Source: a bacterium (GTDB taxonomy: Bacteria > Patescibacteriota > Patescibacteriia > UBA9934 > GWF2-40-263). From it: a DNA stretch of 64,000 bases. Made by a program: the position numbers and the translations under genes. Within the stretch, counting starts at the first letter, position 1. Each line of letters starts with the position of its first letter. Below the pieces are notes generated by a model, which ran no database searches, had not been told where the DNA came from, and was given only the letters and a program-made list of their open reading frames with translations. The stretch is taken from assembly GCA_020057555.1 (NCBI GenBank), contig JAGVFR010000028.1, forward strand, positions 12,444 to 76,443, given 5' to 3'. This document shows, in pieces, positions 7,939 to 57,807 of the stretch.

Positions 7939-7994
7939 GGGAAGTAGATTATCATATTTTGACGTTTTTGTCAAGAGCCTACCATGAATACTTG

Positions 7995-8013: not shown

Positions 8014-8026
8014 AAAAAAGGGTTGT

Positions 8027-8056
8027 CACTTGACAGAAGAAATCAAATCACATACA
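8027..8056 (+). promoter_or_regulatory. Putative sigma70 promoter for rpsP (TTGACA, 17-nt spacer, TACACT)
   Basis: cttgacagaagaaatcaaatcacatacact. An 8-bp hairpin CCACGGCT/AGCCGTGG lies just before the start codon. Confidence 0.35.
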
Positions 8057-8120
8057 CTCTCCTCACATTCACTTTTCAAATACTATACAACCACGGCTAA
8101 AGCCGTGGGCTACAAACACT

Positions 8121-33002: not shown

Positions 33003-33078
33003 CGGGACGTAGCTCAGTAGGTAGAGCGCCTGGTTTGGGACCAGGAGGCCGCAGGTTCGAGCCCTGTCGTCCCGACCA
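33003..33078 (+). tRNA. tRNA-Pro (TGG), CCA encoded
   Basis: CGGGACGTAGCTCAGTAGGTAGAGCGCCTGGTTTGGGACCAGGAGGCCGCAGGTTCGAGCCCTGTCGTCCCGACCA. Confidence 0.85.
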
Positions 33079-33163
33079 ACTGCTGATAGATTCAGATGTG
33101 ACAGGACGGCTGCGTCGCTCGAGAGAGACAAACTTTGTTTATCTCTCCGCTCGCTATCCTCGC

Positions 33164-33189
33164 CGTTCGAGCCCTGTCGTCCCGACCAA
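33164..33189 (+). repeat. Perfect 25-nt direct repeat of the tRNA-Pro 3' end (T-arm plus acceptor), about 110 nt downstream of the gene. att-site-like duplication.
   Basis: gttcgagccctgtcgtcccgaccaa occurs at 33054-33078 and again at 33164-33188. The 85-nt spacer contains an imperfect palindrome gagagagacaaactttgtttatctctc. Confidence 0.8.
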
Positions 33190-33428: not shown

Positions 33429-33803
33429 TCAGCAGTGCAACACTGTTCGCGGACCATGGATGAAGGCAAAAGCCCGAGGACCTCTTGGTAGTTGGTCAAC
33501 CTCGGTTCCTTCTTCAGTATGAATGAAGGCAAACGTCGCCTGTTTGAACAGTATGGAGATGTCCGAATCCAACACCGCTCCCGGCATCGGCTGTGTTGTC
33601 TCGTTCTCGCCCATGAAGAGCGCGATGTTGCTGAAGATCAGGCTGATGTCACAGTCAGCTGTATCCCGAACTTGTACGCCGATTTCACTTCCTTGCGCTT
33701 CCGCCAACGACTGAGGTCCGGTGGTGTCTGCCTTCTGCGGTCTAGCGATCGCCGTTCCGCAGACAAGCAACACTACCGCAAGGATCCCAAGAATCTTTTT
33801 CAT
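33429..33803 (-). CDS. Small secreted protein (~124 aa), GC-rich gene. The start is the internal MKKILGILAVVLLV of the 184-aa ORF.
   Basis: Signal peptide. AAGGA ribosome-binding site. Its own terminator GGAGCGATTaaactcAATCGCTCC plus a T run at ~33380-33410. About 52% GC. Confidence 0.5.
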   Translation of the reverse strand: MKKILGILAVVLLVCGTAIARPQKADTTGPQSLAEAQGSEIGVQVRDTADCDISLIFSNIALFMGENETTQPMPGAVLDSDISILFKQATFAFIHTEEGTEVDQLPRGPRAFAFIHGPRTVLHC

Positions 33804-33976
33804 GGTTTTTCCTTCGGTTGTTGTTGTACTTGTAACAAGAAAGCCCGCTCTCTTTTTGCCATCATCCAAAAACATCCAGTCTCCGCCTCCTTTCTGACTG
33901 TGTCTTTGGATAACAACCGAGACAGCTCTTGATCCCCGAACTTCAGAAACCAAGAGCTGGCACGGTGAATATAATC

Positions 33977-34459
33977 TTACCACTTTTTGTTTGCCATTGT
34001 TATAGCGGCCGCGAGCGCGTCTGCCGCGTCGTCTGGTTTTGGAGGTTTTGGTAAATGCAGAATTTCTTTTACCATTTTTTGCATTCCAGCTTTTGTCGCG
34101 GCACCGTTTCCTGTCATAGCTTTTTTAATTTGCGCTGGAGTAAATTCAAACACAGGAGTTCCTGATTGAGCGGCCATTAGCATTGCAACTCCGCGCGCTT
34201 CAGCAACACACATTGCAGTTGACGAACTTTTCCCAAAAAATAATTTCTCAATCGCAACAGCATGCGGTTTGTGATGCGCGAACAAGTCGCCCAAATCATT
34301 CGCCAAACTTAACAAACGATTTTCAAACGCGTCACCGCTTGTTGTAACCATAACTCCATAATCAACAAGTTCGACTGCTCCTGCATTTACGAAAATAACT
34401 CCAAATCCCATTCGGCCGTATCCCGGATCAAGACCCATCAAAATGTAACCTTGTTCCAT
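33977..34459 (-). CDS. ruvC: Holliday junction resolvase RuvC
   Basis: ILMGLDPGYGRMGFGVI...AVAIEKLFF...DAADALAAAI. Confidence 0.85.
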   Translation of the reverse strand: MEQGYILMGLDPGYGRMGFGVIFVNAGAVELVDYGVMVTTSGDAFENRLLSLANDLGDLFAHHKPHAVAIEKLFFGKSSSTAMCVAEARGVAMLMAAQSGTPVFEFTPAQIKKAMTGNGAATKAGMQKMVKEILHLPKPPKPDDAADALAAAITMANKKW

Positions 34460-34515: not shown

Positions 34516-37500
34516 TTATTCTTCAACTAATTCTTTCTTCTCATCCTCTCCAATCACTTTGTTCTCTGAAAAAGCTTTTTCAATTTCTCCCACAATCTCC
34601 CTTGTTGGTATTGTAATTTCAAGCTCTTCAGGAAGATTAATTTCACCGATCATTTCTTTCTGCATTCCTTCATATCCTGTTCCTGCTGGAATAAGTCGTC
34701 CGATAATAACGTTTTCTTTCAAACCTTCCAAACGATCAACCTTTCCAGTTACAGCCGCACTAATAAGAACCTTTGCTGTTTCTTGGAAGGATGCCGAAGA
34801 CAACCACGAGTCAGTTGAAAGCGAGATTTTTGTGATTCCAAGAAACAATTCTTCTGAAGTTGCTTCTTTTCCTTTTCCAACATCGTCGTTTGCATCGAGG
34901 AATGTTGCTTTTTCAATTATCTCACCTGGAAGAAGATCCGTGTCTCCCGGATCAAGCACACGCACACGAGAAAACATTTGATGAATGATAATCTCAATGT
35001 GTTTGTTGTTTAATTTCTGACCTTGGCTCGCGTAAATGAACTGAATTTCTTTTGACAGATATTTTTGAACCGCGGCTTGTCCTTTGTGTTTGAACAAAAC
35101 TTGCAAGTCCAAATTTCCATCAGTCAATGGATCGCCTGACTGAACTTCATCGCCATCTTTAACATAAAGAGTGTATCCAGGTGGGATGATGTATTCGCGA
35201 ATTTTTTCAACTTCACTTATAACATTCACAACTCCTGCTTTTCCAATTTTCACAACCCCGTCAACTTTTGACTCAATAACTCCGGAAGATTTTTCTGCCA
35301 AAGATTGTCCTTTAATAACCGACTCTCCATCTTTAACCAAAATCTTTGATGCTTTTCCGACAATGTGTGGTTCTTCTTCAATTGAAGTGTATGCAACCTT
35401 AACTGCCTTTTGTCCCGGACGAATATCAACGATTTGCTTTCCGGTTCCAGCTTGAACAATTTCGCGCTGAGCAATTTCAACGCTAACTTTTCCTGAAACT
35501 TCAGACATGATCGCTTTTTGTTTTGGATTGCGAGCTTCAAACAATTCTTCAACGCGTGGCAAACCTTGCGTGATATCTTTTCCTGCAACACCTCCAGTGT
35601 GGAAAGTACGCATTGTAAGCTGTGTTCCAGGTTCTCCAATTGATTGTGCGGCCATGATTCCTACGGCAGTTCCCATGCGAACGAGTTTGTTGAAAGCAAG
35701 ATCATATCCATAACACTTTCTACAAACACCTCGACGCAAGCGACATGTTGTAACACTTCGAACATGAGCTTCGGTTAGATTTTCACCAGCGGCTTCAAGT
35801 TCACGAATGTGTTCTTCTGTAATTATCTCGCCAGCTTTGACTATAATTTTTCTACCACCAGGTTTTTTAACATCAGATAACGCAGAGCGTCCAAGAATGC
35901 GAACAATAAGTGGTTCTCCGATTTCATCTGATTCCTCTTTTGTAAGATGAACTCCTTGATCGTCTCCGCAATCTTCTTCTCGTACGATTACGTCTTGCGC
36001 AACATCAACCAAACGTCGAGTAAGATACCCAGCGTTTGCTGTACGCAAAGCTGTGTCTGTCAAACCTTTTCGAACACCGTGAGAAGAAATAAAGAATTCA
36101 AGAACATCGTATCCATCTTTGAAGGAAGATTTAACTGGGAGTTCAATAATTTCTCCGGCTGGGTTTGCAACAAGTCCTTTCATACCGACCATCTGCGTCA
36201 TCTGACCCCAAGTTCCACGAGCTCCGGATTCAATCATTGTGTAAGCTGAACTGTCTTTTGATAAAGATTTTTTCGATTCATCCGCGATGCGATCTTTAAT
36301 CTCACTCCAAATTTTGATGATAGATGAATGACGCTCGGAAGCAGTGAGAAGACCTTGCTCAAAAAATTCTTCAGTTTCTCGCAAACGGCTTTCTCCTTCC
36401 GCGATCAGTGCTGGCTTGTTTGCAATTGTTGGAAGAGCTGACATTCCCCATGAGTAACCAGATTGAGTTGAATACTCAAACCCGAGTTCTTTCAAACGAT
36501 CAAGAAATTGCGCTGTAAGTTCAGAACCATTAAGTTCAAGATAGTATTTAACGATATTTGAAAGCTCTTTTTTGCCAAGTGTCTGGTTCATGAATGGAAC
36601 TTCGTGTGGAAATTGTGAATTCACAATAACACGCCCAGGACTTGTAATAAGAGTCTCTCCGTTTTTCAATCGAACAACACACCAATCTCTCCATTTAAGA
36701 TGACCAATGCGAACAGCATAGAGCGCGTCAGTTTCATCTGAAAAAATTGGCAAGCCAGTTTTTTCTTTTGGCATTGGTGTTAATTCCATTGTGAGATAGA
36801 AAATTCCCCAAGCAATATCTTTTCCAGGAGTCACAACTGGCCCGCCGTGCGCTGGCTTAAGCAAGTTTTTGGATGAAAGCATGATCTCGCGAGCTTCGGC
36901 ACGCGCTTCTTGAGTGAGTGGAACATGAACAGCCATTTGGTCGCCGTCAAAGTCCGCGTTGTACGCGTCACAAACAAGTGGGTGAATTTGAATGGCTTTT
37001 CCTTCAATAAGCGTTGGACGAAATGCCTGAATACCAAGACGGTGAAGAGTTGGAGCGCGGTTCAAAAGAACAAATGCGTCTTTGATTATCTCTTCCAAAA
37101 TATCCCAAGTCTCTGGTCTGTCTGACTCGATAAAACGATTAGCGCTTCGAATGTTATGAACGTATTCACGCTCAATCAGTTTTGAAATAATAAACGGCTT
37201 GAAAAGTTCAAGCGCCATTTTCTTTGGAAGACCGCATTGATCAAGTTTAAGATGAGGGCCAACAACAATAACGCTTCGTCCAGAATAATCAATACGTTTT
37301 CCAAGAAGGTTCTGGCGGAAACGACCTTGCTTCCCTTTCAACTGGTCAGCAAGAGATTTTAGTTGGCGCTTTTTTCCTGTTGCCGCAATAACAGTTTTGC
37401 TGTGACGTGCGCTATTGTCGATAAGTGCATCAACAGCTTCTTGCAACATGCGTTTTTCATTTCGAGAAATAACTTCTGGCGCGTTCAATTCATACAAACG

Positions 37501-38541
37501 TTTGAGACGATTGTTGCGGTTGATAACACGGCGATAAAGATCGTTCAAATCAGAAGTTGCAAATCTGCCGCCATCAAGAGGAACCATTGGGCGAAGATCT
37601 GGTGGAATGATTGGAACAACTTCCAAAACCATCCATCCTGGTTTGATATTGTTTATGAAAAGCGATTTTAGTAATTTGAGACGTCTTAGCAAACGATCGC
37701 GTTTTGTTTTTGTCGCATCTTCAAGTTCCTCTTCGAGCTTTTTCATTGTTTCCTCAACATTCACGCGTCTTAACATTTCCTGAACAGCTCCAGCGCCAAT
37801 TCCTGCTTCAAAAATATGACCGTACTTGAGCGACCAATCATGATATGTTTGTTCAGAAATAATAGACAAAACTTTCATGTCTTCAAGATCATTCATCACT
37901 TGTTCATAATCCAAAGTCAGTTCCTCTGTTTTCTGATCGCGAATTTCTTCCAAACGATGCATTTCTTGTTTAATTTTCTTTTCATCAGTTCCAAACTTTT
38001 CTTCAAGACGTCCAACATCGCGCTTAAATTCACCTTCAATCATTTTCTCTTTGCTCTTTTTTTCTTGTTTAACTTGTTCAATAGTTTGTTCTTTTGCTTC
38101 TTCATTTATATTGGTGATAATGAAGCTTGCAAAGTAAATAACTTTTTCCAAATTCTGAATTGACATGTCAAGCACTGTTCCGATTTTGGAAGGTACTCCG
38201 CGCAAAAACCAAATATGCGTAATTGGACATGCGAGCTCGACATGACCCATACGTTCGCGTCGAACAATCGAGTGTGTTACTTCAACTCCACACTTATCAC
38301 AAACAATTCCTTTGTAACGGATTTTTTTATACTTACCGCAATAACACTCCCAATCTTTTGATGGTCCAAAAATCTCTTCAGCAAACAAACCGCTTTTTTC
38401 AGGTTTCTGTGTGCGGTAGTTGATTGTTTCCGGTTTTAATACTTCTCCGAATGACCAGGAACGCATAACTTCAGGTGAAGCCAAGCGTAGGCGAATGGAG
38501 TCAAAGTCTGTTGATTTGAGCGAGTCTTGTTTTTTGAACAT
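34516..38541 (-). CDS. rpoC: DNA-directed RNA polymerase subunit beta'
   Basis: 1341 aa. Zn finger [23 protein letters not shown]. Active site [14 protein letters not shown]. Confidence 0.95.
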
Positions 38542-38543
38542 AT

Positions 38544-41500
38544 TTATTTTGACTTCTTCTCTCCTGGCAGGTCGACCTTTTTGCCATCTTTCAAAAGCTC
38601 AACATCCAGACACAGACCCTTAAGCTCTCGAACAAGCACATTAAATGATTCTGGGATATTCACTTTTCTTATTTGCTCACCTTTGATAATTGCTTCGTAT
38701 GCTTTTGATCGGCCGGGAACATCATCTGATTTGATTGTAAGAATTTCTTGAAGAGTGTGCGCGGCGCCGTATGCTTCCAAAGCCCACACTTCCATTTCTC
38801 CGAAACGCTGTCCTCCGAATTGCGCTTTTCCACCGAGCGGTTGCTGTGTGATAAGCGAGTAAGGACCGATCGAGCGTTGATGCATTTTGTCTTCAACCAT
38901 GTGAGAAAGTTTGAGAATGTACATGTATCCGATTGTCACAGGGTTTTCGAATTTTTCACCATTTCTTCCGTCATAAAGATCAACCTGACCTGTTGTTGCC
39001 ATTCCGGCTTTTTCCAATTCTTCATGAATCTGCGCTTCTGTTACTCCATCTAGAACATGAGTTGTAACGTTGTATCCAAGCGCGTTTGCGGCAAGACCCA
39101 AATGGACCTCGAGAATTTGTCCGAGGTTCATACGTGAAACAACTCCAAGCGGAGTGAGGATAACATCAAGCGGAGTTCCGTCTGCTAAAAACGGCAAGTC
39201 AGCCATTGGAACAACTCTTGAAATAACACCTTTGTTTCCGTGACGTCCCGCGACCTTATCACCAACTTGAATTTTTCGAAGGTCAGCAATTGTAACTTGG
39301 ATTGATTTGATAACTCCTGGTGAAAGTTTGTCTCCAGCTTCTCGAGAGAAAATCGTTACATCAACAACTTTTCCGTGTTCACCATGTTCAAGATATAAAG
39401 AAGAATCACGAACATCGCGCGCTTTTTCTCCAAAGATCGCTCGAAGCAATTTTTCTTCTGCTGAAAGTTCTGTTTCACCTTTTGGAGTAATTTTTCCAAC
39501 CAAGATATCACCTGACTTTACTTCAGCTCCAATACGAATTATTCCTTCAGCATCAAGGTGTTTCAATTTTTCTTCTGAAACGTTTGGAATGTCAGACGTA
39601 ACAACTTCTGGACCAAGTTTTGTGTCGCGAACATCAATTGTGTAGTTTTCAATGTGGACTGAAGTAAATCTGTCATCATGAACAAGCCGTTCAGAAATAA
39701 TAACAGCGTCTTCAAAGTTATATCCGTCCCATGCCATAAATCCGACCAAACAATTTTGTCCAAGCGCGAGTTCTCCGTGATCAACCGCTGACGAGTCAGC
39801 AACAACGTCACCCTTTTTGATTTTCTGTCCTTTATCTACAACTGGTCGTTGATTGATTGCTGTTGAATTGTTAGAACGCAAAAACTTTTTCAACTCGTAA
39901 TCAAACACATTGTCGTGCTTGTCTGTAATTTGAATTCGACTTGAGTCAACTTGTGAAATTTCTCCTTCTTGTTCTGCGACAACAACGTGGCCTGAATCTT
40001 TTGCCGAACGTTTTTCAACACCGGTTCCAATAATTGGCGCATCAGGTTTAATAGTTGGAACAGCTTGACGTTGCATGTTTGTTCCCATGAGCGCGCGAGT
40101 CGCGTCATCGTGTTCCAAAAACGGAATAAGCGCGGTTCCAATTGAAACGATCTGCTTTGAAGAAACGTCCATGTAATCAATTTCTGATTGTGAGACGATT
40201 TTTGGTTCCCCATATTTTCTTCCGCCAATAAATTCATCAATAAAATATCCATTTTCATCAATTGGAATTGTTGCCGGAACTGTAACTGATCGTTCTTCTT
40301 TGAATGCATTGATAAATTCAACCTCGTCAGTCGCTCTGGCGATTTTTTTTCCATTTTTTTCTTCTTTTACAACTTTTCGATATGGAGTTTCAATAAACCC
40401 ATAATCGTTGATAATTGCATATGATGCGAGGTGGCCGATAAGTCCGATGTTAGGTCCTTCCGGAGTTGCGATTGGACAAATACGACCATAGTGAGTTGGG
40501 TGAACATCGCGAACTTCAAAGCCCGCGCGCTCACGCGAAAGACCACCAGGCCCCATAGCTGAAAGTCGACGTTTGTGTTCGAGCTCCGCAAGTGGGTTTG
40601 TTTGATCCATGAATTGTGAAAGCTGTGAACTCATGAAAAATTCTCGCACAGCTCCAATAACAGGGCGAGCATTGATGAGCTTTCCTGGAGTAAGAGCTCC
40701 GATATCTTGAGTTGACATTCGATCTTTAATAATGCGTTCCATTCGAGCAAGACCAACACGGAAACGACCCTGAATGAGTTCACCAACAGCTCGCACGCGA
40801 CGATTTCCCAAATGATCTACATCATCAGGATCACCTTGTGTGATATTTAAATTGATAATCTCTCGAACAATTTTTACTAAATCTTCTTTTCTGATAATTC
40901 GTTTCTTTTCATCTGCAACTTCTTCTGGCGAAACATCATCATTGAAGCGCAAATTAAATTTGTATCGTCCGACTTTTCCCAAATCGTATCGATCAAAATT
41001 GAAAAACATTGAGTGAATAAGACCTTTGGCATTATCAGCTGTTGCGCGATCTCCAGGTCGAATACGCTTGTACACTTCAATCAAACCATCATCTTCATTT
41101 TTTGAAATGTCTTTGTTCAGCGTTGCTTCAATGTAGTGATTGATTGGATGAGTATCAATGTCTTTAAAGAAAGACATAATCTCTTCGTCAGTTGAAATAC
41201 CAAACGCGCGCATAAGAGCTGTAACAGGGACTTTGCGCTTGCGATCGATTTTTACCCAGATCACGTTTTTTGGATCTGTTTCAAATTCAAGCCATGCTCC
41301 GCGGTTTGGAATAATCTTTGCTCCATAATATCTGCGTCCTCGATAAACTTCCGCGGTAAAAAATGCTCCAGCGCTTCGTACAAGTTGTGACACGACAACA
41401 CGCTCAACACCGTTAATCACAAATGTTCCGCGTGGAGTCATGATTGGAAGATCACCCAAATAAATTTCCTGTTCTTTGACGTCTTTTGTGCGCAAATTCA

Positions 41501-41810
41501 CAAGGCGAGTTTTAACTCGAAGTGGCGCTTCAAACGTCACGTTTTTCATGCGTGATGTTTTTTCATCAAACTTTGGCTCATCCAAATAATAATCATCAAA
41601 ATAAAGCTCGAGATCGCGACCAATAAAGTCGTGAATAGGTGTGACTTCAGAAAAAAGCTCTTTGATTCCCTCATCAAAAAACCAACGATAAGAACGACGT
41701 TGAACCTCAATCAAGTCAGGAAGCTCAAGAGCATCCGTGGCTGTATTGAAGACTTTTCGCTCTCGTGTTTTAACAGGGGTGCGGCGATATATAGGCATAA
41801 TAGAAAACAA
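38544..41810 (-). CDS. rpoB: DNA-directed RNA polymerase subunit beta
   Basis: 1088 aa. Conserved blocks such as [26 protein letters not shown] and [21 protein letters not shown]. Confidence 0.95.
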
Positions 41811-42337
41811 AAAGAAAACCTTTGATTTAGAGGTCTTCCTTATTTATTTTGTTTGTGGGTTGAGAAAGCCATCAAAGAGTGGGTGAGTTCTTTAGATGGA
41901 AACTACCTTCTGTGCACCTGGTTGACCGTTCAGCCACAAACGAGGTGAAATATTTTGTCAAACTTTGCTCAAATTAGCTAAAAATGACGAAATGCAACGA
42001 GATAGTAACATGCGCTGGTACGAACGTCAAGTGCCATATGTGAACTTTCAGTGGATTGTCAAGAGTTAGGATTTTTTAGCTAAAAAAAGCAAAAAGACCG
42101 TTGTCAGGTCCTTTGTAAACTTGGGTTTATCCACAGCCTCCTTTTCACAAGGCTGCGAAGTGAAGCCACGAAAGAGTTACCGAGTCAAAACATCTGAGCA
42201 TGAGGAGAGAGATTTTGCCGCATTCCGTTAGGAACACAGCGATGCTCGCGGTTTTCATTCGGAAATATCGTACCCCACATCGCAGCCTTGCAAAAACAAG
42301 GCGTAATAACACTTAATATTATAGTGTTAATTTGGAA

Positions 42338-42385
42338 AAAATCAAGTAAAAGGACCAAAAGGACGAAGAAGACCAAAATGACCAA
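42338..42385 (+). repeat. Five tandem imperfect purine-rich 9-mers in the long rpoB leader region
   Basis: aaaaggacc aaaaggacg aagaagacc aaaatgacc aagaaggaa. Confidence 0.5.
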
Positions 42386-42496
42386 GAAGGAAACCCCATT
42401 TTTACTCAATTTTCTATCTACAATCTTCGATATCACGAAATATGATTGTGGAGAGAAGAAAAAGTGGGTCCAAGTGAATGGGTGGACCCTGCCCAG

Positions 42497-43639
42497 TTAC
42501 TGCACTATTGCTTCGAAACCATGTGTAATCTCGACAAGCTCCCCTGCGACAAGATCATCGTCCCAAGGAACTTCGACTGCCTTTACGAGGCCGAGTTCGT
42601 TCAAGCCAATCAGTTGCGCTTGAATTTTCCCTTGAACTTCACAAATAAACGTAAAGAGAGGAGTTTTGATCGGAATGTAGTCGCATTTGAGTCTGCTTGG
42701 GTCTATGAAACCTCGCTCAAACGACCCGATGAGCGGAACTTCAGAACAGCGCTTGCGATCAACGGCGTATGGGTAGTAGACCCAACAGCCATCGACCTTT
42801 TTCATATAAGCAACTTGTCCAGCTCCCATGAGCTTTTCTGGCTTGCCATCGATCTCGCCTGTCGTAGCGTGGCGATCGTCTGGAAGTTCGAGTAATGGTC
42901 CGGCTCCGAATTGATCGCCGTCTCTGTAAACGATTCGCGCCTTTGGCGGATCGACCGGTTCTGACGAAGAGATTCGTCGAATAGGCTCCGGAAAAATCGT
43001 AGGTCTTTTTCCTTTGAGACGAACGACCTCGATCTTCCTGTCAGACCCAGTCAGTGAAATGTGCCCGCCGACTTCTCTCGGAGGTCCGTCCTTATGAAGA
43101 CGGTATCTGCACTGCGGGACAGTTACAGAACCGAGAAGTGGATCTGGAACGATCGTGACTGTCATGTAGACGGTCAACAGCAGACGATCGAGCTCGCTCC
43201 AATCTGATCCAATGAGCACGACAAGTTCTGATCGCGAACGACGCTTCGCATCGAGATTAACAGCTTCTCCCACGCACTCACAGATCTCATCGACAGCAAG
43301 TTCGACTGCAGTCGGTGATTTTTGCGCACGCGCTCGAATGAGTGCTTTCTTTGCGCGACCGATCGCACTAGCGAACCTCGCACGATCAGCACGTCTTTGT
43401 CGCGCCATTTCCGCGTTGAGCTCTGCGCCGACAGTATCACCGATCGTGCTGTGCGCTGTCTGCGGCGGTGGTCTCTCTCCTACCTCTTGCCTATTCCCTA
43501 TTCCCTCTTGCCTCTTGCCAACTTCCGGCCTTGTACCAGGAACGAAGTTTGAAGCACCAAGCGCCACAGAAATTTGCGTTGTTCGAACCTTGATCGGCGC
43601 CGCGACTTGCGGCTTTGGCGTTGTCCGAATCTTCTCCAT
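42497..43639 (-). CDS. Hypothetical protein (380 aa) on a GC-rich island. The N-terminus is Arg-rich and disordered; the C-terminal domain is globular.
   Basis: Long ORF at ~55% GC. Ribosome-binding site GAAGGGGGAG is followed by ATG. I could not recognise a family. Confidence 0.55.
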   Translation of the reverse strand: MEKIRTTPKPQVAAPIKVRTTQISVALGASNFVPGTRPEVGKRQEGIGNRQEVGERPPPQTAHSTIGDTVGAELNAEMARQRRADRARFASAIGRAKKALIRARAQKSPTAVELAVDEICECVGEAVNLDAKRRSRSELVVLIGSDWSELDRLLLTVYMTVTIVPDPLLGSVTVPQCRYRLHKDGPPREVGGHISLTGSDRKIEVVRLKGKRPTIFPEPIRRISSSEPVDPPKARIVYRDGDQFGAGPLLELPDDRHATTGEIDGKPEKLMGAGQVAYMKKVDGCWVYYPYAVDRKRCSEVPLIGSFERGFIDPSRLKCDYIPIKTPLFTFICEVQGKIQAQLIGLNELGLVKAVEVPWDDDLVAGELVEITHGFEAIVQ

Positions 43640-43884
43640 TTTTCTCCCCCTTCATCCTCGATTATCTCATCAAGGAATTTGTTACGCCAATGTTTACTCT
43701 TCTACAATAAAACCGCTCAGGGAGGTCGAGAATGTCACATAGTGATCTAGGCATGGCCGTAGATGTGTGTAACGTGACGAATCAACACGGTGCAAAAAAA
43801 GTTTTCACCTTGTCTGCATCGGAGATCGCGCCAGGGTGGGTTCTCGTCCTCCATAAGCGGTTTTAAAAGTTCACATTGAAAACA

Positions 43885-43935
43885 AAATCCCATGTTTGGA
43901 GAGATATAGCGAACATATCACCAAACACGGGATTT
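43885..43935. other. 14/15-bp stem-loop in the island intergenic region
   Basis: aaatcccatgtttgg...ccaaacacgggattt. Confidence 0.5.
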
Positions 43936-44037
43936 CCTTAATTTTTCGCGACTCTCTCCAGAAACGCGAAAACGTAAATTGTGATTTTTTTAGAGCCAGC
44001 CCCGACAGAGTGTCGGGGCTGCTCAGGTTGAGTGTTA

Positions 44038-44448
44038 CTATACCGGATTGCCAGGGCACGTCATGTCGAAACGGAACCAGTTTCCAGCCGGCGACTGCAC
44101 TCGCTGTCCTCCGCACGAACCAGCGAAGAAAGAGCTAGTAAACGAGGTGTGGGCGAAGTAGATCTGGTCGCCTACGACGTCGCCGTCCTTGTCGTGCTGG
44201 ATCTCTGCCAGAATCTCACCGGTCTGCGCATCGTAGAAACGCTCCAATCCGGCGACATAGTGCGCTCCATCGCGCTCGACGACACAAGTACCATCGACGG
44301 TCTGGTGACCGATCATGTAGTCGCCAAGGTTTCGAACCATGAGCTCCGTTCCATTGGGACACGGGTGATCCACATCCTCCGGGAGTTTGGCCGCGCACGC
44401 GGATACGAACAGCGATACGACGAGCACCATCACGAGTAAGTAACGCAT
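44038..44448 (-). CDS. Putative lipoprotein (~136 aa), GC-rich
   Basis: Start MRYLLVMVLVVSLFVSAC (lipobox-like SAC), with AAGGAGG 7 nt upstream. It contains six or more Cys residues. Confidence 0.6.
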   Translation of the reverse strand: MRYLLVMVLVVSLFVSACAAKLPEDVDHPCPNGTELMVRNLGDYMIGHQTVDGTCVVERDGAHYVAGLERFYDAQTGEILAEIQHDKDGDVVGDQIYFAHTSFTSSFFAGSCGGQRVQSPAGNWFRFDMTCPGNPV

Positions 44449-44597
44449 TGTCTCCTCCTTGGCTTTCACGCCTGATTGTAGATTTCTGCCCACACTTGCG
44501 GACAGTGTTCAATCCATATAAATGAACTGAACACTATCAGCATATTTATTGTGTCATTCTGAGGGAGTAATTCATTCGTGATCCTTCACGGAATTTA

Positions 44598-44665
44598 CCC
44601 TGAGCGGAGGCAATCATGGCCTTCGACAGGCTCAGGCAATAATTGCCGAAGTCGAAGGGTTCAGG
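44598..44665 (-). repeat. Family-1 intergenic element plus an adjacent partial GTCGAAGG hairpin
   Basis: The reverse complement is aattattgcctgagcctgtcgaaggccatgattgcctccgctcaggg. The stem is CCTGAGC/GCTCAGG. Confidence 0.6.
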
Positions 44666-44702
44666 ATGACAAGAAGGAAGAAAGTTGCTCTGGACGACAA
44701 CT

Positions 44703-44781
44703 GTTTGAACGGTTGTGCTGTGTCGAAGGGAACAGCGGCGATAGTCCGATGGCCCGGAGACATAGCACAACCGTTCAAACT
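44703..44781 (+). ncRNA. Family-2 structured RNA motif, copy A. A conserved 42-nt core lies inside a long hairpin with a covarying closing stem.
   Basis: gtttgaacggttgtgctgtGTCGAAGGGAACAGCGGCGATAGTCCGATGGCCCGGAGACATagcacaaccgttcaaac. Confidence 0.5.
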
Positions 44782-44823
44782 ATGATGAAATAATTTAACG
44801 AACAAAGATATCACAAAATGCCG

Positions 44824-44852
44824 ATTTTGTCAAGAACGCTTCTGTGCTAAAA
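44824..44852 (+). promoter_or_regulatory. Putative ftsK promoter (TTGTCA, spacer, TGcTAAAAT)
   Basis: ttgtcaagaacgcttctgtgctaaaatg. Confidence 0.4.
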
Positions 44853-44859
44853 TGTCTCC

Positions 44860-47184
44860 ATGTCACGCAGACGCAAACGTACGTATAAACGAGCCGAAGA
44901 AGAGAGCAAGGGCTCCATCCTGGGAATTGAGCTCAATCAAGAAACAAAACGCGGCATTATTGTCGTGTTGCTTTTTGCAGTTGCGGCGCTAATGTTCCTG
45001 TCGTTTTTCCAAATTGCAGGAAGTCTTGGAACAATTATAAATTCTGGTCTTTCTCAATTTTTTGGCTTTGACCGCTTTCTTGTCCCACTTGTTTTAATTA
45101 TGATAGGAGCAACACTTGCATATCCGGAGCGTGGAACTTTTTCAACTTGGAATTTACTTGGGTTGTTTTTCTTTTTCTTGTCATTCAATTCAATACTAAA
45201 TCTTTTACTTGTTAATAAGCCTGAACCGTTCACACAAAATCTTTCTTCTGCTGGTGGATATCTTGGTCAATTCTTGGGTTTACTTTTGCCAACTTTCGTT
45301 GGTTATTGGGGAGCGATCGTAATTGCGATTGCTCTACTTTTTATTTCAATAATGCTTGCCTTTAACACGTCGCTTCATAAGCTTGGCCCAGCGCAAACTC
45401 ATTTGTCAGGTTGGATTGGGAGAATGTTTAGTAGAAAAATCGGAGAGGTTGCAGAAGTTGAAGAGGCAGAATATGACGAAAAGGTTGGAGAAGTTGAAGA
45501 CGAAGAAGAAGTCGAAGAAGAAAATCACGAATTTCATGCAAAACCTGTTGAAGTAACAAAACAACTTGAAACTCTCCTTGCTACAAAACAACGACGTCAA
45601 ATTAACATTCCACTTACTTTGCTTGATCGTTCAACATCAAAAGCTCAATCAGGTGACATTGAACGCAACAAAGAAATTATTGAAAAGACATTTCATGAAT
45701 TTGGAATCGACGTCGAAATGGGAAACATTTCTGTTGGCCCAACAGTCACGCAATATACACTTCGTCCAGCGCAAGGAATCAAGCTCGCACGAATTGTGAG
45801 TTTGCAAAATGACCTTGCGCTTGCTCTTGCCGCGCACCCAATCCGTATGGAAGCTCCAATTCCTGGAAAATCCCTGGTTGGTATTGAAGTTCCAAATACA
45901 AAAGTTGCGACAGTTACGCTACGAGATGTTATTGAATCAAAACCATATCGTGAATGGAAAGGGGCTCTTGCAATTCCACTTGGAAAAGACGTGTCTGGCG
46001 GAACTTGCATGATCTCACTTGATAAAATGCCTCATCTCCTTGTTGCCGGAGCAACTGGTTCTGGAAAAAGTGTATGTCTAAATGCAATTATTTTATCACT
46101 CATTTATCAATACGGTCCTGATGATTTGAAATTCATCTTGGTTGATCCAAAACGTGTTGAACTAACAGCGTATGCTGGAATTCCACACTTACTTGTTCCT
46201 CCAATTGTTGGAGTTGATGACACAGTAAACGCGCTTAAATGGACTGTGAGAGAAATGGAACGACGTTTAGACATGCTATCAAAACATGGAGCGCGAAACA
46301 TTGATGATTACAATGCTAAGGTCGAAGAACGCATGCCAAAAATTGTAATTTTGATTGATGAACTCGCAGATCTTATGTCAGCAAGTGGGCGAGAAGTTGA
46401 AGCAACGATTGTCCGTATTGCTCAAATGGCGCGCGCTGTTGGAATTCATCTTGTACTTGCAACTCAACGTCCGAGTGTTGATGTTATAACGGGGCTTATT
46501 AAGGCCAACATCCCTGGACGTATTGCCTTCGCAGTTGCCTCTCAAACCGATTCACGCACAATTCTCGATCAATCTGGTGCAGAAAAACTTCTTGGTCGTG
46601 GTGACATGCTTTTCACATGCGCAGAAATATCAAAACCAAAACGAATTCAGGGCGCGTTTGTTTCTTCTGATGAAGTTGAGCGAATTGTTTCGTTCCTTCG
46701 TAAAAAAGGAGAACCTGATTACAATTTGGCAATCACTGAAATCACAAAAGCCGGAACAGTTTTTGATAATCCGGAAGATAGCGATCCAATGCTTGAGGAA
46801 TGTGTCCGAGTTGTTCTACAGTCCGGGAAAGCTTCGACGTCTTTACTGCAACGACGACTTCGCATTGGATATTCACGGGCCGCTAGAATAATGGATCTAC
46901 TTGAACAAGGCGGAGTTATTGGTCCACCTGATGGTTCAAGACCGCGCGAAGTGTTGATTGATGAATGGCCACCTGGAGGAAATATAAAAGAGGGAATGCC
47001 AATTGCGCAAGATGATTATGAAGAGGCTTGGGGAAAAGAAACTAGAGAAGCTGAAGAGGCAGAAGAAGTTGTAGCGGTAGGCTTTGGCATTCCAGAAGCT
47101 GAAGAAGCTGCAGAAGATCAAGAAGTGGAAAAAGATGAGAAGGAAAACTGGGAAGATAAGATCGATGACGAATGGATAAAATAA
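44860..47184 (+). CDS. ftsK: DNA translocase FtsK/SpoIIIE
   Basis: 774 aa. N-terminal TM helices, Walker A GATGSGKS, a C-terminal gamma-like domain and an acidic tail. Confidence 0.9.
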   Translation: MSRRRKRTYKRAEEESKGSILGIELNQETKRGIIVVLLFAVAALMFLSFFQIAGSLGTIINSGLSQFFGFDRFLVPLVLIMIGATLAYPERGTFSTWNLLGLFFFFLSFNSILNLLLVNKPEPFTQNLSSAGGYLGQFLGLLLPTFVGYWGAIVIAIALLFISIMLAFNTSLHKLGPAQTHLSGWIGRMFSRKIGEVAEVEEAEYDEKVGEVEDEEEVEEENHEFHAKPVEVTKQLETLLATKQRRQINIPLTLLDRSTSKAQSGDIERNKEIIEKTFHEFGIDVEMGNISVGPTVTQYTLRPAQGIKLARIVSLQNDLALALAAHPIRMEAPIPGKSLVGIEVPNTKVATVTLRDVIESKPYREWKGALAIPLGKDVSGGTCMISLDKMPHLLVAGATGSGKSVCLNAIILSLIYQYGPDDLKFILVDPKRVELTAYAGIPHLLVPPIVGVDDTVNALKWTVREMERRLDMLSKHGARNIDDYNAKVEERMPKIVILIDELADLMSASGREVEATIVRIAQMARAVGIHLVLATQRPSVDVITGLIKANIPGRIAFAVASQTDSRTILDQSGAEKLLGRGDMLFTCAEISKPKRIQGAFVSSDEVERIVSFLRKKGEPDYNLAITEITKAGTVFDNPEDSDPMLEECVRVVLQSGKASTSLLQRRLRIGYSRAARIMDLLEQGGVIGPPDGSRPREVLIDEWPPGGNIKEGMPIAQDDYEEAWGKETREAEEAEEVVAVGFGIPEAEEAAEDQEVEKDEKENWEDKIDDEWIK

Positions 47185-54725: not shown

Positions 54726-54800
54726 GGAGCAGTTTGCATCATGTCGCAGGGAACAACGGCGAGGAGTCCGTTGGCCCGGAGACATGGTGCAAACTGCTCC
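54726..54800 (+). ncRNA. Family-2 structured RNA motif, copy B
   Basis: ggagcagtttgcatcatGTCGCAGGGAACAACGGCGAGGAGTCCGTTGGCCCGGAGACATggtgcaaactgctcc. Confidence 0.5.
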
Positions 54801-55927: not shown

Positions 55928-56119
55928 ACGAGCCGAGTATACCTAGTGAGTAGAATCTTGTGAAGAGAAAAACAATATGTTATCCTCGTGCCAGCATGTC
56001 GCTGACACGACACTCGACAAACCTCAAAAAGCATCCTGTAGGATAAATCTATCAGTTAAAAACTGGGACAAATCCCGCACAACAACGGCATATCGCCGTC
56101 AGGTGCGAAGGAGGTTTCA

Positions 56120-56266
56120 ATGTTCGAGCATGTCGTGTCCCACGAAGCTGGCCCTGGTGGAGCTCGCGCACCTGAATGGCCTGATCCGATCTTTCTCCCA
56201 GGGGTCTTCAATGTTTCCCGCAAACCCATTGGGCGCCGAAGGCGTAAGGTTCGGCTCTGGCACTAG
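56120..56266 (+). CDS. Small ORF (48 aa, Arg-rich C-terminus) with a strong ribosome-binding site and its own terminator. Hypothetical.
   Basis: AAGGAGG, 6 nt, then ATG. It encodes MFEHVVSHEAGPGGARAPEWPDPIFLPGVFNVSRKPIGRRRRKVRLWH. The terminator GACTCGAGAtcttCTCGAGTC plus T7 lies at 56307-56336. Confidence 0.35.
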   Translation: MFEHVVSHEAGPGGARAPEWPDPIFLPGVFNVSRKPIGRRRRKVRLWH

Positions 56267-56344
56267 ATGTCACTCCACAACTCAACACGATAAGCGTCAT
56301 GCCACTGACTCGAGATCTTCTCGAGTCACTTTTTTTACGATTGA

Positions 56345-56372
56345 AAACAAAAAAACACGGGGTGAACCGTGT
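56345..56372 (-). terminator. Intrinsic terminator for the minus-strand lipoprotein gene
   Basis: aaaaaaacacggggtgaaccgtgt on the plus strand; the U-run is on the minus strand. Confidence 0.55.
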
Positions 56373-56389
56373 CAGTTACTATGTGTGAC

Positions 56390-57394: not shown

Positions 57395-57397
57395 TGA

Positions 57398-57715
57398 TTA
57401 CTCCTTTATCGTTTCCATCTGTTCGTACACCCCTGACTTGTCAACGTCCGACCGTGGCATGCGATTAGACGATGCAAACATCGACATTTCGCAAACAAGA
57501 CCGACCAGAGAAAGAACAACGATGATGATCATGGTGATAGCAGACCACTTTCGCGCGGTCTCTTTCTCGGAATCGTTCAGAATATGTGTGACCTTGAGAA
57601 ATAGACGGAAGACGATCAAGACGAAGATAGAGATGATTATCAGGAATACGACTCCGGTAATCTCTCCTTGAAAGGCTCGAAAGAACCCTTCCCAATGGAA
57701 CCCCTGTTCTGACAT
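57398..57715 (-). CDS. Small membrane protein (2 TM), NfeD-like partner candidate. The start is likely the internal MSEQGFHWEG.
   Basis: The hydrophobic segments VVFLIIISIFVLIVF and ITMIIIVVLSLVGLV sit immediately upstream of the lipoprotein gene. Confidence 0.4.
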   Translation of the reverse strand: MSEQGFHWEGFFRAFQGEITGVVFLIIISIFVLIVFRLFLKVTHILNDSEKETARKWSAITMIIIVVLSLVGLVCEMSMFASSNRMPRSDVDKSGVYEQMETIKE

Positions 57716-57807
57716 GAAACTTTTCCTCCCATTTCCACATCGGCCGTCTATCAGCCGAGAAAGGATAATAAAACAAAAGACACTTCTTGTCAATATTAAA
57801 GTGTTTA

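Follow-up and report, generated by a model that had tools for sequence, protein, structure and literature searches.

The window, by which we mean the whole 64-kb stretch of DNA that was analyzed, carries between rpoB and ftsK two genes and a series of RNA structures. The longer gene, here called X, encodes a 380-aa protein of an uncharacterized family, and the shorter one encodes a predicted lipoprotein. Two structured RNAs lie on either side of X: RNA-U immediately upstream, and RNA-D between X and rpoB. The features of the interval are as follows.

41799-42030, minus strand: rpoB promoter-like site and conserved 5′ leader of ~200 nt with hairpins (scan; conservation)
42092-42114, minus strand: intrinsic terminator after RNA-D (scan; covarying stem in lineage L009)
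42126-42300, minus strand: RNA-D, a structured RNA of 175 nt forming a rod with 57 bp (RNAalifold, covariance model R1)
42318-42345, minus strand: RNA-D promoter-like site TTGATT-16-TATAAT (promoter scan)
42348-42391, no strand: 9-nt tandem repeat, 4.8 copies, within a variable insert of ~65 nt (TRF)
42451-42489, minus strand: intrinsic terminator of X, GGGUCCACCC...UUGGACCC then a U-run (conserved with compensatory changes in seven lineages)
42497-43639, minus strand: X, 380-aa protein (orthologues, AF2, synteny, GC3)
43483-43519, no strand: 7-nt tandem repeat, 5.3 copies, within the disordered, indel-prone part of X (TRF)
43661-43690, minus strand: promoter-like site TTGGCG-18-GATAAT with TG, just 5′ of the X SD and start codon (promoter scan)
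43705-43864, minus strand: RNA-U, a 160-nt structured RNA (RNAalifold consensus, covariance model R2)
43875-43977, minus strand: two conserved hairpins (inverted repeats; comparison of four close relatives)
~43995-44540, minus strand: lipoprotein cassette, GC3 0.69, ending in a perfect hairpin at 43997-44021 (comparison with relatives)
44038-44448, minus strand: lipoprotein coding sequence, 136 aa, start MRYLLVMVLVVSLFVSAC, ORFan (SD, lipobox)
44546-44792, no strand: two dispersed hairpin repeat (REP/MITE-like) elements (repeat copies, inverted repeats)
44805-44833, minus strand: promoter-like site TTGACA-17-TATCTT with TG (promoter scan, 10/12 match)

An earlier note on this DNA had described the stretch as a GC-rich island of ~55% GC. 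A compositional bump is indeed present, also at synonymous sites, but its mean is lower, at ~50-52%. The GC content of 42185-44520 is 50.3% versus 41.6% for the whole window, that of 42497-44493 is 51.9%, and peaks within the interval reach 58-59% in 200-nt windows (0.585-0.59). Only 1.5% of same-size windows match the interval in GC-richness, and the only others with a GC fraction of at least 0.49 start at ~8-10 kb, around the 16S rRNA gene. Codon usage of both genes deviates from that of the core genes. X has a GC3 of 0.486 and the lipoprotein gene one of 0.693, versus 0.27-0.32 for rpoB, rpoC, ftsK, and recA, and by RSCU distance among the 33 long ORFs of the window the lipoprotein gene is the most deviant and X ranks fourth. 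The offset is confined to coding sequence, with the intergenic blocks flanking X having a GC content of 40-46%.

The X ORF is real, as its start is preceded by the SD GGGGGAG, its orthologues align end to end, and dN/dS is below 0.3. In the AF2 model (pLDDT 77.5), residues 1-65 are disordered, residues 66-159 are helical, and residues 161-357 are beta-rich. The N-terminal segment formerly described as Arg-rich and disordered is thus disordered only over residues 1-65, since residues 66-105 are predicted with pLDDT > 90 to form one long helix, an Arg/Lys-rich element of 40 residues. The tandem-repeat-encoded segment in this protein was found where TRF places the 7-nt repeat, and the length differences among X orthologues fall in the same region. 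Neither a signal peptide nor a catalytic motif was found in X, and some family members (P0014, P0015, P0019, P0022, and the L018 copy) have a zinc-ribbon N terminus. Together, the Arg/Lys-rich helix, the zinc ribbon of some members, and the lack of a signal peptide and catalytic motif hint that X might be a cytoplasmic nucleic-acid-binding or regulatory protein, an assignment that we offer with considerable reserve. The promoter-like site 5′ of X is tentative because it is conserved in close relatives only.

Relatives of X are few. The search of 1.84 billion representative proteins returned 46 remote homologues, and at close range X was found in one of 185,579 species-representative genomes. 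All named members belong to Uhrbacteria or Patescibacteria, and judging from these sequence searches the family appears to be confined to Candidatus Uhrbacteria. No match was found in Pfam for 41 family members or in NCBIfam for six, and X has no match in PADLOC or PHROG and no relative in phage, plasmid, or viral (IMG/VR) collections. Comparison with PDB and BFVD by fold and by sequence likewise gave no match (Foldseek versus PDB, E < 0.1). A TnpB/IscB-type RNA-guided nuclease was considered because a protein of ~400 aa adjoins structured RNAs, and was rejected on finding no RuvC or HNH domain (Pfam, 41 members) and no PDB fold match.

All 11 lineages with sufficient flanking sequence have X or its homologue immediately 5′ of rpoBC and in the same orientation (the window, L001, L002/6/7, L003/4, L009, L010/11, L013/14, L016, L017, L018, and the P0022 contig), and ftsK lies upstream of X in most of these. 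Orthologues share 66-79% identity with X and remote homologues 21-37%. The order within the slot is ftsK, variable small ORFs, RNA-U, X, RNA-D, rpoB leader, and rpoBC, and the wider neighborhood is also syntenic (S6-SSB-S18-aaRS-EFP-recA-HTH-ftsK-X-rpoBC). Given the metagenome source and the sharp compositional change, one might suspect an assembly chimera or mis-binning, with a GC-rich fragment attached to a low-GC genome, but this reading is refuted to the point of a negligible probability, as more than 10 independent assemblies (NCBI, ENA, JGI, and Logan) show the same gene order, with both junctions conserved in sequence.

The GC-richness of X shows at all three codon positions and recurs throughout the family. 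In each of the 11 lineages measured, GC3 of X exceeds that of adjacent core genes by 0.11-0.34: 0.49 vs 0.27-0.32 in the window, 0.47 vs 0.31-0.35 in L001, 0.49 vs 0.26-0.33 in L002, 0.48 vs 0.31-0.32 in L003, 0.80 vs 0.48-0.57 in L009, 0.74 vs 0.44-0.52 in L010, 0.82 vs 0.49-0.57 in L012, 0.57 vs 0.39-0.46 in L013, 0.78 vs 0.38-0.48 in L016, 0.85 vs 0.51-0.52 in L017, and 0.69 vs 0.38-0.40 in L018. This finding indicates that the GC offset is an old property of the locus and not the result of a recent import. Moreover, at protein identities of 21-37% saturation of synonymous sites was reached long ago, so that any one-time ancient import would have ameliorated by now. We conclude that X is a lineage-specific Candidatus Uhrbacteria gene inherited in place, and that its GC-richness is a long-standing property of the slot rather than the scar of a recent transfer.

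X evolves under purifying selection, yet 5-20 times faster than its neighbors. Its dN/dS is 0.17-0.27, versus 0.01-0.03 for rpoB and 0.07-0.10 for ftsK, and comparison of the window with L007 or L003 gives X a dS of 1.09-1.27, versus 0.35 for rpoB and 0.53 for ftsK, so that synonymous divergence is about threefold that of rpoB. The trees of X and rpoB disagree, in that the nearest relative of the window is L001 by X and L002 and L003 by rpoB. Furthermore, L006 and L007 are 99.9% identical at the nucleotide level in ftsK and 99-100% identical in X except at codons 176-225, where identity falls to 65-71% and L006 fits the alleles of the window and L003 at 80-84%. The sequences thus point to a clear 150-nt recombination tract in X of one lineage. 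Alleles of X predate species splits and recombine between lineages.

The 690-nt leader upstream of rpoB, which had been noted as lacking ORFs, is far from empty, as it holds the X terminator, a promoter-like site, RNA-D with its own terminator, a second promoter-like site, and a structured rpoB leader. The second site (TTGACG-17-TACTAT, 42002-42030) precedes the leader, which is conserved with compensatory changes in seven lineages and ends in a terminator-like hairpin directly 5′ of the rpoB start at ATG 41798 (replacing TTG 41810). The arrangement of an own promoter-like site and terminator followed by another promoter suggests that RNA-D may be a small RNA in its own right and not just a 5′-UTR element. 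Equivalents of its promoter-like site are found in L010 (TTGATC-N17-TACAAT) and L009 (TTGCCA-N17-TACAAT), and the ~65-nt insert carrying the 9-nt repeat, which the window shares with L003, is missing from L001 and L002.

RNA-D was found in each of the 10 lineages for which the DNA between X and rpoB was available. Its covariance model gives one match per locus in 10 lineages, including three outside the seed (L016, L017, and L018), with scores of 72-202 bits on the forward strand versus 15-45 bits on the reverse. An unpaired stretch of 15 nt lies on only one of its strands, and this internal loop, AAAAUCUCUCUCCUC (42202-42216), is invariant in five of the six seed lineages. RNA-U is predicted to fold into a three-way junction closed by a long helix, with UUUU following. 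Its model matches once per X locus in 12 loci (11 full and one partial, in L017), always just 5′ of X, with forward-strand scores of 44-179 bits (31 in L017) versus 29-43 bits on the reverse strand. In alignments that were fitted to their models, 94.9% of cells are paired in RNA-U, with compensatory changes at 41 of 61 pairs (slid controls, 37-47% paired and 5-12 pairs), and 95% are paired in RNA-D, with compensatory changes at 25 of 57 pairs (slid controls, 42-44% paired and 3-10 pairs); none of 500 shuffles reaches the covariation observed for RNA-D. RNA-U and RNA-D are well-supported conserved structured RNAs that are absent from Rfam, with no family at E ≤ 10 for either RNA at the window, L009, or L016 loci.

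On the ftsK side, the locus has a different history. The small Cys-rich lipoprotein ORF is real, with its likely start shifted to ATG 44448, after the SD AAGGAGGAG; GTG 44493 is disfavored. Its N terminus, MRYLLVMVLVVSLFVSAC, reads directly as a signal peptide with the lipobox V-S-A-C (pattern [LVI][ASTVI][GAS]C), five further cysteines are present, and the lipobox signature predicts a bacterial lipoprotein. Among 5.8 billion proteins, it matches only itself and a frameshifted 92-aa copy. Searches of Pfam, PADLOC, PHROG, and NCBIfam gave nothing above threshold, phage, plasmid, and viral collections contained no relative, and no homologue pointing to a donor was found. The cassette occurs only in the window and the L003/L004 lineage and is missing from the close relatives L001 and L002. 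Its nucleotide identity between the window and L004 is 96.7%, higher than the identities of rpoB (93%) and X (69.4%), and the L004-lineage gene is frameshifted by a 2-nt indel in two independent assemblies. Neither an integrase or transposase nor a target-site duplication was identified for the cassette.

Next to the cassette lie the repeat elements, one of family 1 (~44546-44690) and one of family 2 (hairpin 44703-44780), with a hairpin of 22 nt that is 95% complementary and further copies in the window at 7260-7292 (94%), 20153-20187, and 54726-54800. These elements are likewise absent from L001 and L002. The promoter-like site at 44805-44833 is directed toward the lipoprotein gene, RNA-U, and X; in back-to-back arrangement, it overlaps the region upstream of ftsK. 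In L001 and L002 it is kept as TTGACA-N17-TAGATT and directly abuts the two conserved hairpins, whose stems are invariant and loops variable in four close relatives. One of these (43885-43935) is a terminator-like hairpin of 14 bp followed by a U-run, and the other (43947-43968) has the form CGCG-loop-CGCG, with GGAGAGAG in the loop. The long hairpins noted earlier between the two genes are thus present, at 43885-43905/43915-43935 and 43997-44007/44011-44021. The lipoprotein gene, its hairpin, and the REP-like elements constitute a recent insertion of ~0.8 kb just downstream of a promoter, one that lineages have recently exchanged and that shows decay in one lineage already.

We therefore favor, with a probability of about 0.6, the reading that the interval is composite, joining an old, conserved module to a young insertion. 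Horizontal acquisition, which the earlier note had proposed for both genes, fails for X, which is in place with the same GC3 excess in all lineages with visible flanks, and stands for the ~550-nt lipoprotein cassette plus repeat elements. Conservation of position with comparable GC among relatives, which that note had named as an argument against an island, is what was found for X. The hairpin repeat elements bound the stretch on the ftsK side as described, but a conserved RNA occupies the rpoB side.

How the GC excess of X persists within this composite is a separate matter. It might be maintained by GC-biased gene conversion (gBGC) during frequent allelic recombination in the slot, in which case the conserved RNA blocks on either side of X would act as homology arms. 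We consider this mechanism possible, with the odds leaning against it. A GC3 offset of 0.2-0.3 is large relative to that reported in bacteria, and third-position changes in X polarized within the window's own subclade number 84 S>W versus 57 W>S, which suggests net GC loss rather than equilibrium there. In addition, the unrelated small ORFs of the slot, including that of the young lipoprotein, are also GC-rich, which could equally mean repeated import from a GC-rich pool.

An unlikely alternative is that X is an arms-race gene, such as a target or decoy for factors of phage or host, or some other conflict protein. Its old alleles would be kept by diversifying or frequency-dependent selection and swapped between lineages, and its GC would derive from repeated import of alleles and small ORFs out of a GC-richer gene pool instead of biased conversion. 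The mosaic tract, the discordant tree, a dS two to three times that of the flanks, the indel-prone repeat-encoded N terminus, and the ever-changing GC-rich small ORFs of the neighboring slot, with the newly inserted lipoprotein among them, all fit such a history. Against it, dN/dS is below 0.45 in every segment of X tested, with no positive selection detected at this resolution; X lacks a signal peptide or defense-family signature; and in higher-GC genomes the GC content of X (61-66%) is far from that of the measured genome flanks (41-53%), with no donor found.

X may also act together with the flanking structured RNAs and terminators on its own expression or on that of rpoBC. A more elaborate version, which we regard as improbable, holds that RNA-U, X, and RNA-D form an undescribed Uhrbacteria RNA-protein module in which X binds one or both of the flanking RNAs and controls rpoBC read-through or sequesters RNA polymerase, with the hypervariability, recombination, and GC-richness of X reflecting conflict at a fixed slot. 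Phages targeting transcription are one example of such conflict. This proposal draws on the fact that the three parts strictly occur together at every locus, on the Arg-rich helix and the zinc ribbon, and on the absence of any known family. The adjacency of X to rpoB is itself weak evidence of shared function because the whole neighborhood is syntenic. A link to RNA polymerase is further opposed by the separate terminator of X, by the promoter and terminator of RNA-D, and by the fast evolution of X, which is unlike that of a core transcription factor, and no homology or fold match speaks for any function of X.

The chance is slimmer still that the GC excess is selected directly, through mRNA stability or structure, translation regulation, or an overlapping antisense product. 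The persistence of the offset over deep divergence, in coding sequence only, is consistent with this explanation, as are long ORFs antisense to X at 43212-43742 and 42446-42895, but GC-rich sequence is expected to contain such ORFs by chance, and the unrelated small ORFs of the slot share the bias. Furthermore, rpoB and ftsK share a low GC3 despite very different expected expression, indicating that expression and GC3 are not generally linked here.

It is highly improbable that horizontal transfer brought the entire 2.3-kb stretch in between rpoB and ftsK as a single cargo island with a defense or symbiosis factor. Synonymous composition is deviant, neither gene has a family assignment, repeat elements lie on one flank, and the lipoprotein part behaves as an insertion. 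However, X keeps its position and its GC excess in all relatives examined, even those at 21% identity, and the supposed border on the rpoB side is a conserved RNA rather than a repeat element. As the earlier note observed, no integrase or transposase is visible in the interval; nor were mobility domains found in the Pfam-scanned neighbors, a tRNA within 8 kb, or flanking direct repeats. The PADLOC search gave no family at E ≤ 1 for either protein, and nothing supports a defense or symbiosis function for X or the lipoprotein. Conserved synteny, the shared GC3 excess, and the lack of defense, phage, or plasmid matches indicate that X is not recently acquired cargo or a defense gene.

Under the composite reading, a sharp GC and codon anomaly of the kind usually read as recent transfer is a stable, ancient property of one slot. 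The X slot is therefore a caution for island predictors applied to CPR genomes, and a compact natural test case for what keeps one bacterial gene GC-rich over long times, be it biased conversion, recurrent replacement, or selection. Two structured RNAs outside Rfam and an uncharacterized protein family are thereby linked with the RNA-polymerase operon in a major lineage that is uncultured, and RNA-U, RNA-D, and X are concrete candidates for regulation of transcription genes in these reduced organisms.

Several known systems bear comparison with this locus. Recombination-associated GC enrichment by gBGC in bacteria is known as genome-wide trends (Lassalle et al. 2015, PMC4450053). In keeping with such trends, X is the most GC3-rich long gene at its locus and shows direct evidence of recombination between lineages, but the effect is limited to one slot, is far larger (+0.11 to +0.34 GC3), and comes with no W>S excess. 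Lineage-specific RNA motifs upstream of rpoB have been described as Lacto-rpoB and Rhodo-rpoB (Weinberg et al. 2010 and 2017, PMC5737381). RNA-D and the leader likewise constitute structured RNA consistently upstream of rpoB in a restricted lineage, but have no Rfam match at E ≤ 10 (window, L009, and L016), and RNA-D differs in being a rod of 57 bp that has a promoter-like site and a terminator to itself. The cassette resembles REP/MITE-associated ORFan islets in its deviant codons, patchy presence, high inter-lineage identity, adjoining hairpin repeats, and decay, and differs in lacking an integrase or transposase, an identified target-site duplication, and a donor homologue.

The N protein of phage lambda is an arginine-rich-motif RNA-binding regulator. 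X may be compared with such regulators in having a long Arg/Lys-rich helix and in being encoded amid hairpins and terminators that precede essential genes. X is far larger, however, has a beta-rich C-terminal domain, and shows neither sequence or fold similarity nor signs of antitermination. Finally, RNA-D is unlike 6S RNA in having no Rfam 6S match (E ≤ 10) and a one-sided loop rather than a two-sided central bubble. It is like 6S RNA in its size (~175 nt), its extended imperfect hairpin with a conserved unpaired region, and its organization as a unit with its own promoter and terminator beside RNA-polymerase genes, a resemblance that may serve as a lead rather than as a sign of membership.

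The gene slot directly upstream of rpoB in the window holds X, a 380-aa ORF with no family assigned. This slot is fixed, persistently GC-rich and hypervariable, is bracketed by two well-supported novel RNAs (RNA-U and RNA-D) and heads the RNA-polymerase operon of an uncultured lineage, and it is of more interest than an ordinary hypothetical gene. The closest relatives of the window are MAGs named Candidatus Uhrbacteria. The features of the region are as follows.

34516-38541, minus strand: rpoC
38544-41798, minus strand: rpoB
between rpoB and X: non-coding stretch of ~700 nt
42126-42300, minus strand: RNA-D, a structured RNA between X and rpoB
42497-43639, minus strand: X, the 380-aa ORF
between X and the small ORF: non-coding sequence of ~400 nt
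43705-43864, minus strand: RNA-U, a structured RNA just upstream of X
44038-44448, minus strand: small ORF (lipoprotein)
~44546-44792: two hairpin repeat elements, after the small ORF
44860-47184, plus strand: ftsK, divergent

An earlier note had read the interval between rpoB and ftsK as an acquired island of ~55% GC. The measured mean is nearer 50-52% (50.3% over the interval that it named and 51.9% over 42497-44493, with 200-nt peaks of 0.585-0.59), against ~41.6% for the whole window. Only 1.5% of same-size windows are equally GC-rich, and GC of at least 0.49 is found elsewhere in the window solely around the 16S rRNA gene. Because third codon positions have also moved (X has a GC3 of 0.486 and the small ORF one of 0.693, versus 0.27-0.32 in rpoB, rpoC, ftsK and recA), amino-acid composition is ruled out as the sole cause of the excess. 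The hairpins and short tandem repeat described in that note are present, as are the repeat elements taken for the borders of the island, which flank one side only.

Other sequence features were observed in this region. The stretch from the X terminator to the RNA-D promoter is a small indel hotspot, with a variable insert of ~65 nt at 42348-42415 in which a 9-nt repeat (AAAAGGACC x 4.8) occurs. Among related loci from other assemblies (numbered L001 to L018), L003 has an insert at this site, L009 has a longer and unrelated one, and L001 and L002 have none. At 44800-44862, a TAAAAT box precedes the start codon of ftsK by 6 nt, and the matching TTGTCA box overlaps, back to back, the TTGACA of an opposite-strand promoter. 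This arrangement suggests a divergent promoter pair with an ftsK mRNA that would be leaderless or nearly so.

A word-indexed search of 5.8 billion proteins recovered only four relatives of X at 66-79% identity, all located between ftsK and rpoB, on the rpoB strand and 630-710 nt before rpoB. When one genome per species was scanned (185,579 species), the only one with X was a Uhrbacteria MAG. The family gained 46 distant members (21-37% identity, 290-870 aa) from a profile search of 1.84 billion cluster representatives, and a third word-indexed search with the family alignment as the query gave no new members. Phage, plasmid and IMG/VR collections contained no relatives. Genomic context was checked for nine of the 46 distant members, seven of which have a flank on the rpoB side (L009, L010/11, L013/14, L016, L017, L018 and the contig of family member P0022), and all seven have rpoB-rpoC immediately downstream of the gene, in the same orientation. 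Elsewhere, L012 has ftsK fragments upstream and its contig stops right after the X gene, and the L015 contig, 1.5 kb long, lacks any coding flank. Overall, ftsK is upstream of X in most loci, and rpoB is directly downstream in 11 independent lineages, including the window and three close relatives.

The GC excess is equally persistent. X is GC-richer than its own neighbors in every lineage measured, independent of genome GC, and its first and second codon positions are elevated too.

GC3 of X and of the core genes adjacent to X in the same lineage
Locus; X; core genes
Window; 0.49; 0.27-0.32
L001; 0.47; 0.31-0.35
L002; 0.49; 0.26-0.33
L003; 0.48; 0.31-0.32
L009; 0.80; 0.48-0.57
L010; 0.74; 0.44-0.52
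L012; 0.82; 0.49-0.57
L013; 0.57; 0.39-0.46
L016; 0.78; 0.38-0.48
L017; 0.85; 0.51-0.52
L018; 0.69; 0.38-0.40

GC enrichment extends to the unannotated small ORFs that other lineages have between ftsK and X (GC3 of 0.61-0.88), and the non-coding blocks around X show no enrichment (GC of 0.40-0.46). The excess is therefore ancient and specific to the slot. At 21-37% protein identity, synonymous sites have been replaced many times, and thus a single ancient import would have ameliorated. Coding sequence in this slot is kept GC-rich, or repeatedly renewed, by something.

X also evolves fast and recombines. Its dN/dS of 0.17-0.27 (0.01-0.03 for rpoB and 0.07-0.10 for ftsK) indicates that the ORF is a real gene under constraint. 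When the window is compared with L002 and L003, RpoB is 99% identical and X only 72% and 68%, and dS against L003 and the L002 lineage reaches 1.09-1.27 for X versus 0.35 for rpoB and 0.53 for ftsK. The locus nearest to the window is L001 as judged by X, but L002 and L003 as judged by rpoB and ftsK. This discordance indicates that X alleles predate the species splits and are reassorted. Such exchange is seen directly within the L002 lineage: L006 and L007 are 99.9% identical at the nucleotide level in ftsK and 99-100% identical in X outside codons 176-225, whereas those codons are only 65-71% identical, and there L006 is 80-84% like the alleles of the window and L003. As a separate observation, L002 (~7990-8300), L006 and L007 have an additional ~240 nt inserted after RNA-U and before the start codon of X; the insertion includes a duplicate of SD-proximal sequence (TGATGAGATAAT.GAGGATGAAGGAGG).

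Among explanations for the GC excess we rank first, at a probability of roughly 0.3, recombination-linked GC-biased gene conversion, a process described in bacteria (PMC4450053), for which the conserved RNA blocks would serve as homology arms. Effect size weakens this explanation, as does the direction of recent change: polarized third-position changes in the window's subclade number 84 strong-to-weak versus 57 weak-to-strong in X (110 versus 161 in rpoB), by a crude four-taxon parsimony test near saturation. The X count departs from compositional equilibrium, so X may be slowly losing GC in this low-GC subclade. Recurrent import under conflict-driven diversification, which would renew the slot from outside, is ranked second and is unlikely. 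Direct selection on the mRNA or DNA comes third and is quite improbable. An assembly artefact is essentially excluded, as is the landing of the whole interval as one piece of defense or symbiosis cargo.

The island reading in the earlier note is thus mostly wrong. It had offered conservation of position with comparable GC in relatives as the observation that would count against it, and this is what was found for X, which is kept upstream of rpoB together with its GC excess. The idea survives on a small scale for the lipoprotein gene. In L001 and L002, a promoter-like site (TTGACA-N17-TAGATT; window counterpart at 44833-44805) is followed almost immediately by the conserved hairpins and RNA-U, whereas in the window and L003/L004 the repeat elements and a cassette of ~550 nt (hairpin, SD, lipoprotein CDS and a perfect 11-bp hairpin) intervene. 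Between the window and the L003/L004 lineage the cassette is 96.7% identical (CDS, 97.1%), which exceeds rpoB (93%) and far exceeds the adjacent X (69%). L003 and L004, which are independent assemblies, have in common a 2-nt indel that cuts the lipoprotein to 92 aa, and the codon usage of the gene is the most deviant among 33 long ORFs compared in the window. The absence from L001 and L002, the high identity, the truncation and the deviant codon usage together uphold the small-scale island: the insertion of lipoprotein and REP elements behind the promoter is young, and the gene is an ORFan of recent insertion and exchange that at least one lineage can do without.

Translation of this gene most likely starts at the ATG at 44448, behind AAGGAGGAG, giving 136 aa that begin MRYLLVMVLVVSLFVSAC, and the product is probably a Cys-containing lipoprotein, judging from this sequence. 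No other relative was found among 5.8 billion sequences, nor any among phages, plasmids and viral contigs. Searches of the lipoprotein and X against Pfam, PADLOC, PHROGs and NCBIfam gave nothing above threshold, and weak hits below the curated cut-offs were taken as chance, namely Peptidase_C16 on an over-long 151-aa version (E 5e-4), LvhB7 over 32 signal-peptide residues and an Rz-like spanin (E 0.26).

For X, none of 41 family members matches Pfam (one stray hit only), none of six matches NCBIfam, and X itself has no match in PADLOC or PHROGs. An AlphaFold2 model built from a 41-sequence alignment (mean pLDDT of 77.5) predicts a disordered segment (residues 1-65), four helices (66-159) and a beta-rich domain (161-357). 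One of the helices is a confident 40-residue Arg/Lys-rich helix, so the Arg-rich segment is not predicted to be disordered as had been proposed. Foldseek comparison of the model with PDB and BFVD gave nothing at E <= 1e-3 (best hits, TM < 0.2), and a sequence profile found no match in PDB. X has no signal peptide and no conserved catalytic-looking triad; its nearly invariant residues are R104, D130, G144, P165, I236 and W286. An N-terminal zinc ribbon (CxxC...CxxC) is found, together with Pro/Arg-rich repeats, in several of the distant members. This architecture would suit a protein that acts in the cytoplasm by binding, possibly to nucleic acid, or as a regulator. The role that we favor, doubtful as it is, is a nucleic-acid-binding or regulatory one connected with the flanking RNAs. 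Because the whole neighborhood is syntenic, the position of X beside rpoB says little about its function. A TnpB/IscB-like RNA-guided system was rejected, since the 41 family members scanned have no Pfam domain and the X model has no Foldseek match in PDB.

Small ORFs also occur near X in other lineages. In more distant lineages, the space from ftsK to RNA-U contains a gene for a conserved, very basic protein of ~65-85 aa with the C-terminus ...R(H)H.R..DV..GR.R.PKHKG(R/K) (L009 9089-9283, L010 7443-7679, L013 7316-7573 and L018 2826-3023); it is missing from the window's subclade, and three copies scanned had no Pfam match. A second small ORF is common to L009 (8654-9001) and L010 (7024-7326). 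Pfam searches of the small slot ORFs of other lineages gave no matches.

Elsewhere in the window, ORFs at 23-868, 33429-33983 and 55977-57793 have raised GC3 (0.50-0.63 versus typically ~0.31) and no Pfam match above the curated threshold, and a second putative lipoprotein (56390-57394) is among the raised-GC3 ORFs. GC-rich ORFans seem to recur across this genome, whereas foreign genes usually stand out by being AT-rich. At 33055-33079 and 33165-33189 there is a perfect direct repeat of 25 nt: the 3′ end of a tRNA gene (33003-33075) recurs 110 nt downstream, between two tRNA genes and adjoining the GC-rich, family-less ORF at 33429-33983. It resembles the scar of an att-type integration; L001 has a response-regulator gene at the corresponding position after ruvC. 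A LAGLIDADG homing-endonuclease ORF (11624-12274; Pfam E 7e-42) begins ~100 nt after the 16S rRNA gene (10044-11521), and at the gathering threshold Rfam identified no 23S rRNA in the window. Two 48-nt stretches (2856-2903 and 47056-47103), 88% identical, encode the same acidic C-terminal motif, E..VAxGFGxPEAE, in a 605-aa protein (1101-2918) and in FtsK.

Conservation is far higher in the non-coding blocks on either side of X than in X. RNA-U with its hairpins is 94% identical between the window and L004, and RNA-D 97.7%, compared with 69.4% for X and 93% for rpoB. In RNA-U, a long helix and a U-run close a three-way junction; one copy occurs just upstream of X in 12 loci (11 full, L017 partial). 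RNA-D folds as a 57-bp rod whose internal loop (AAAAUCUCUCUCCUC) does not vary among five of six seed lineages. Searches with its covariance model give a single copy at each locus, located in every case between X and rpoB, including in three lineages outside the seed. Pairing holds in 94.9% of cells in RNA-U, with compensatory changes at 41 of 61 pairs (slid controls, 37-47% and 5-12 pairs), and in RNA-D the values are 95% and 25 of 57 (slid controls, 42-44% and 3-10 pairs); these alignments were fitted to their own models, which biases them toward structure, but the margin over the slid controls is still large. The RNA-D values were reached by none of 500 shuffles, and for both RNAs forward-strand scores are far above reverse-strand scores.

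The sequence TTGATT-16-TATAAT precedes RNA-D and an intrinsic terminator follows it; past the terminator lie TTGACG-17-TACTAT and a conserved leader of ~200 nt that closes with a hairpin just before the rpoB ATG. RNA-U, X, RNA-D, the rpoB leader and rpoBC make up a conserved module. Small conserved ORFs within RNA-D (MLRCFDSV... and GTG-GAT-AAA...) were rejected because of an early stop in L009 and because substitutions are not concentrated at synonymous sites. The minus-strand sequence in the loop of a conserved CGCG hairpin upstream of RNA-U (43953-43960), GGAGAGAG, is the exact complement of CUCUCUCC, which lies in RNA-D's conserved internal loop (42202-42216), and the terminator hairpin at 43885-43935 likewise contains UCUCUCC. 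On the basis of this complementarity, the two ends of the module could pair over a long range or in trans.

RNA-U and RNA-D from three loci matched no family in Rfam 15 even at E <= 10, and Rfam searches at gathering and permissive thresholds gave only miRNA/lncRNA noise, on the REP hairpin and inside X. Literature searches on Uhrbacteria with rpoB, and on CPR with 6S RNA, found nothing. Lineage-specific RNA motifs upstream of rpoB, Lacto-rpoB and Rhodo-rpoB, have been described previously (PMC5737381). Although a member of neither family, RNA-D fits the same kind of element.
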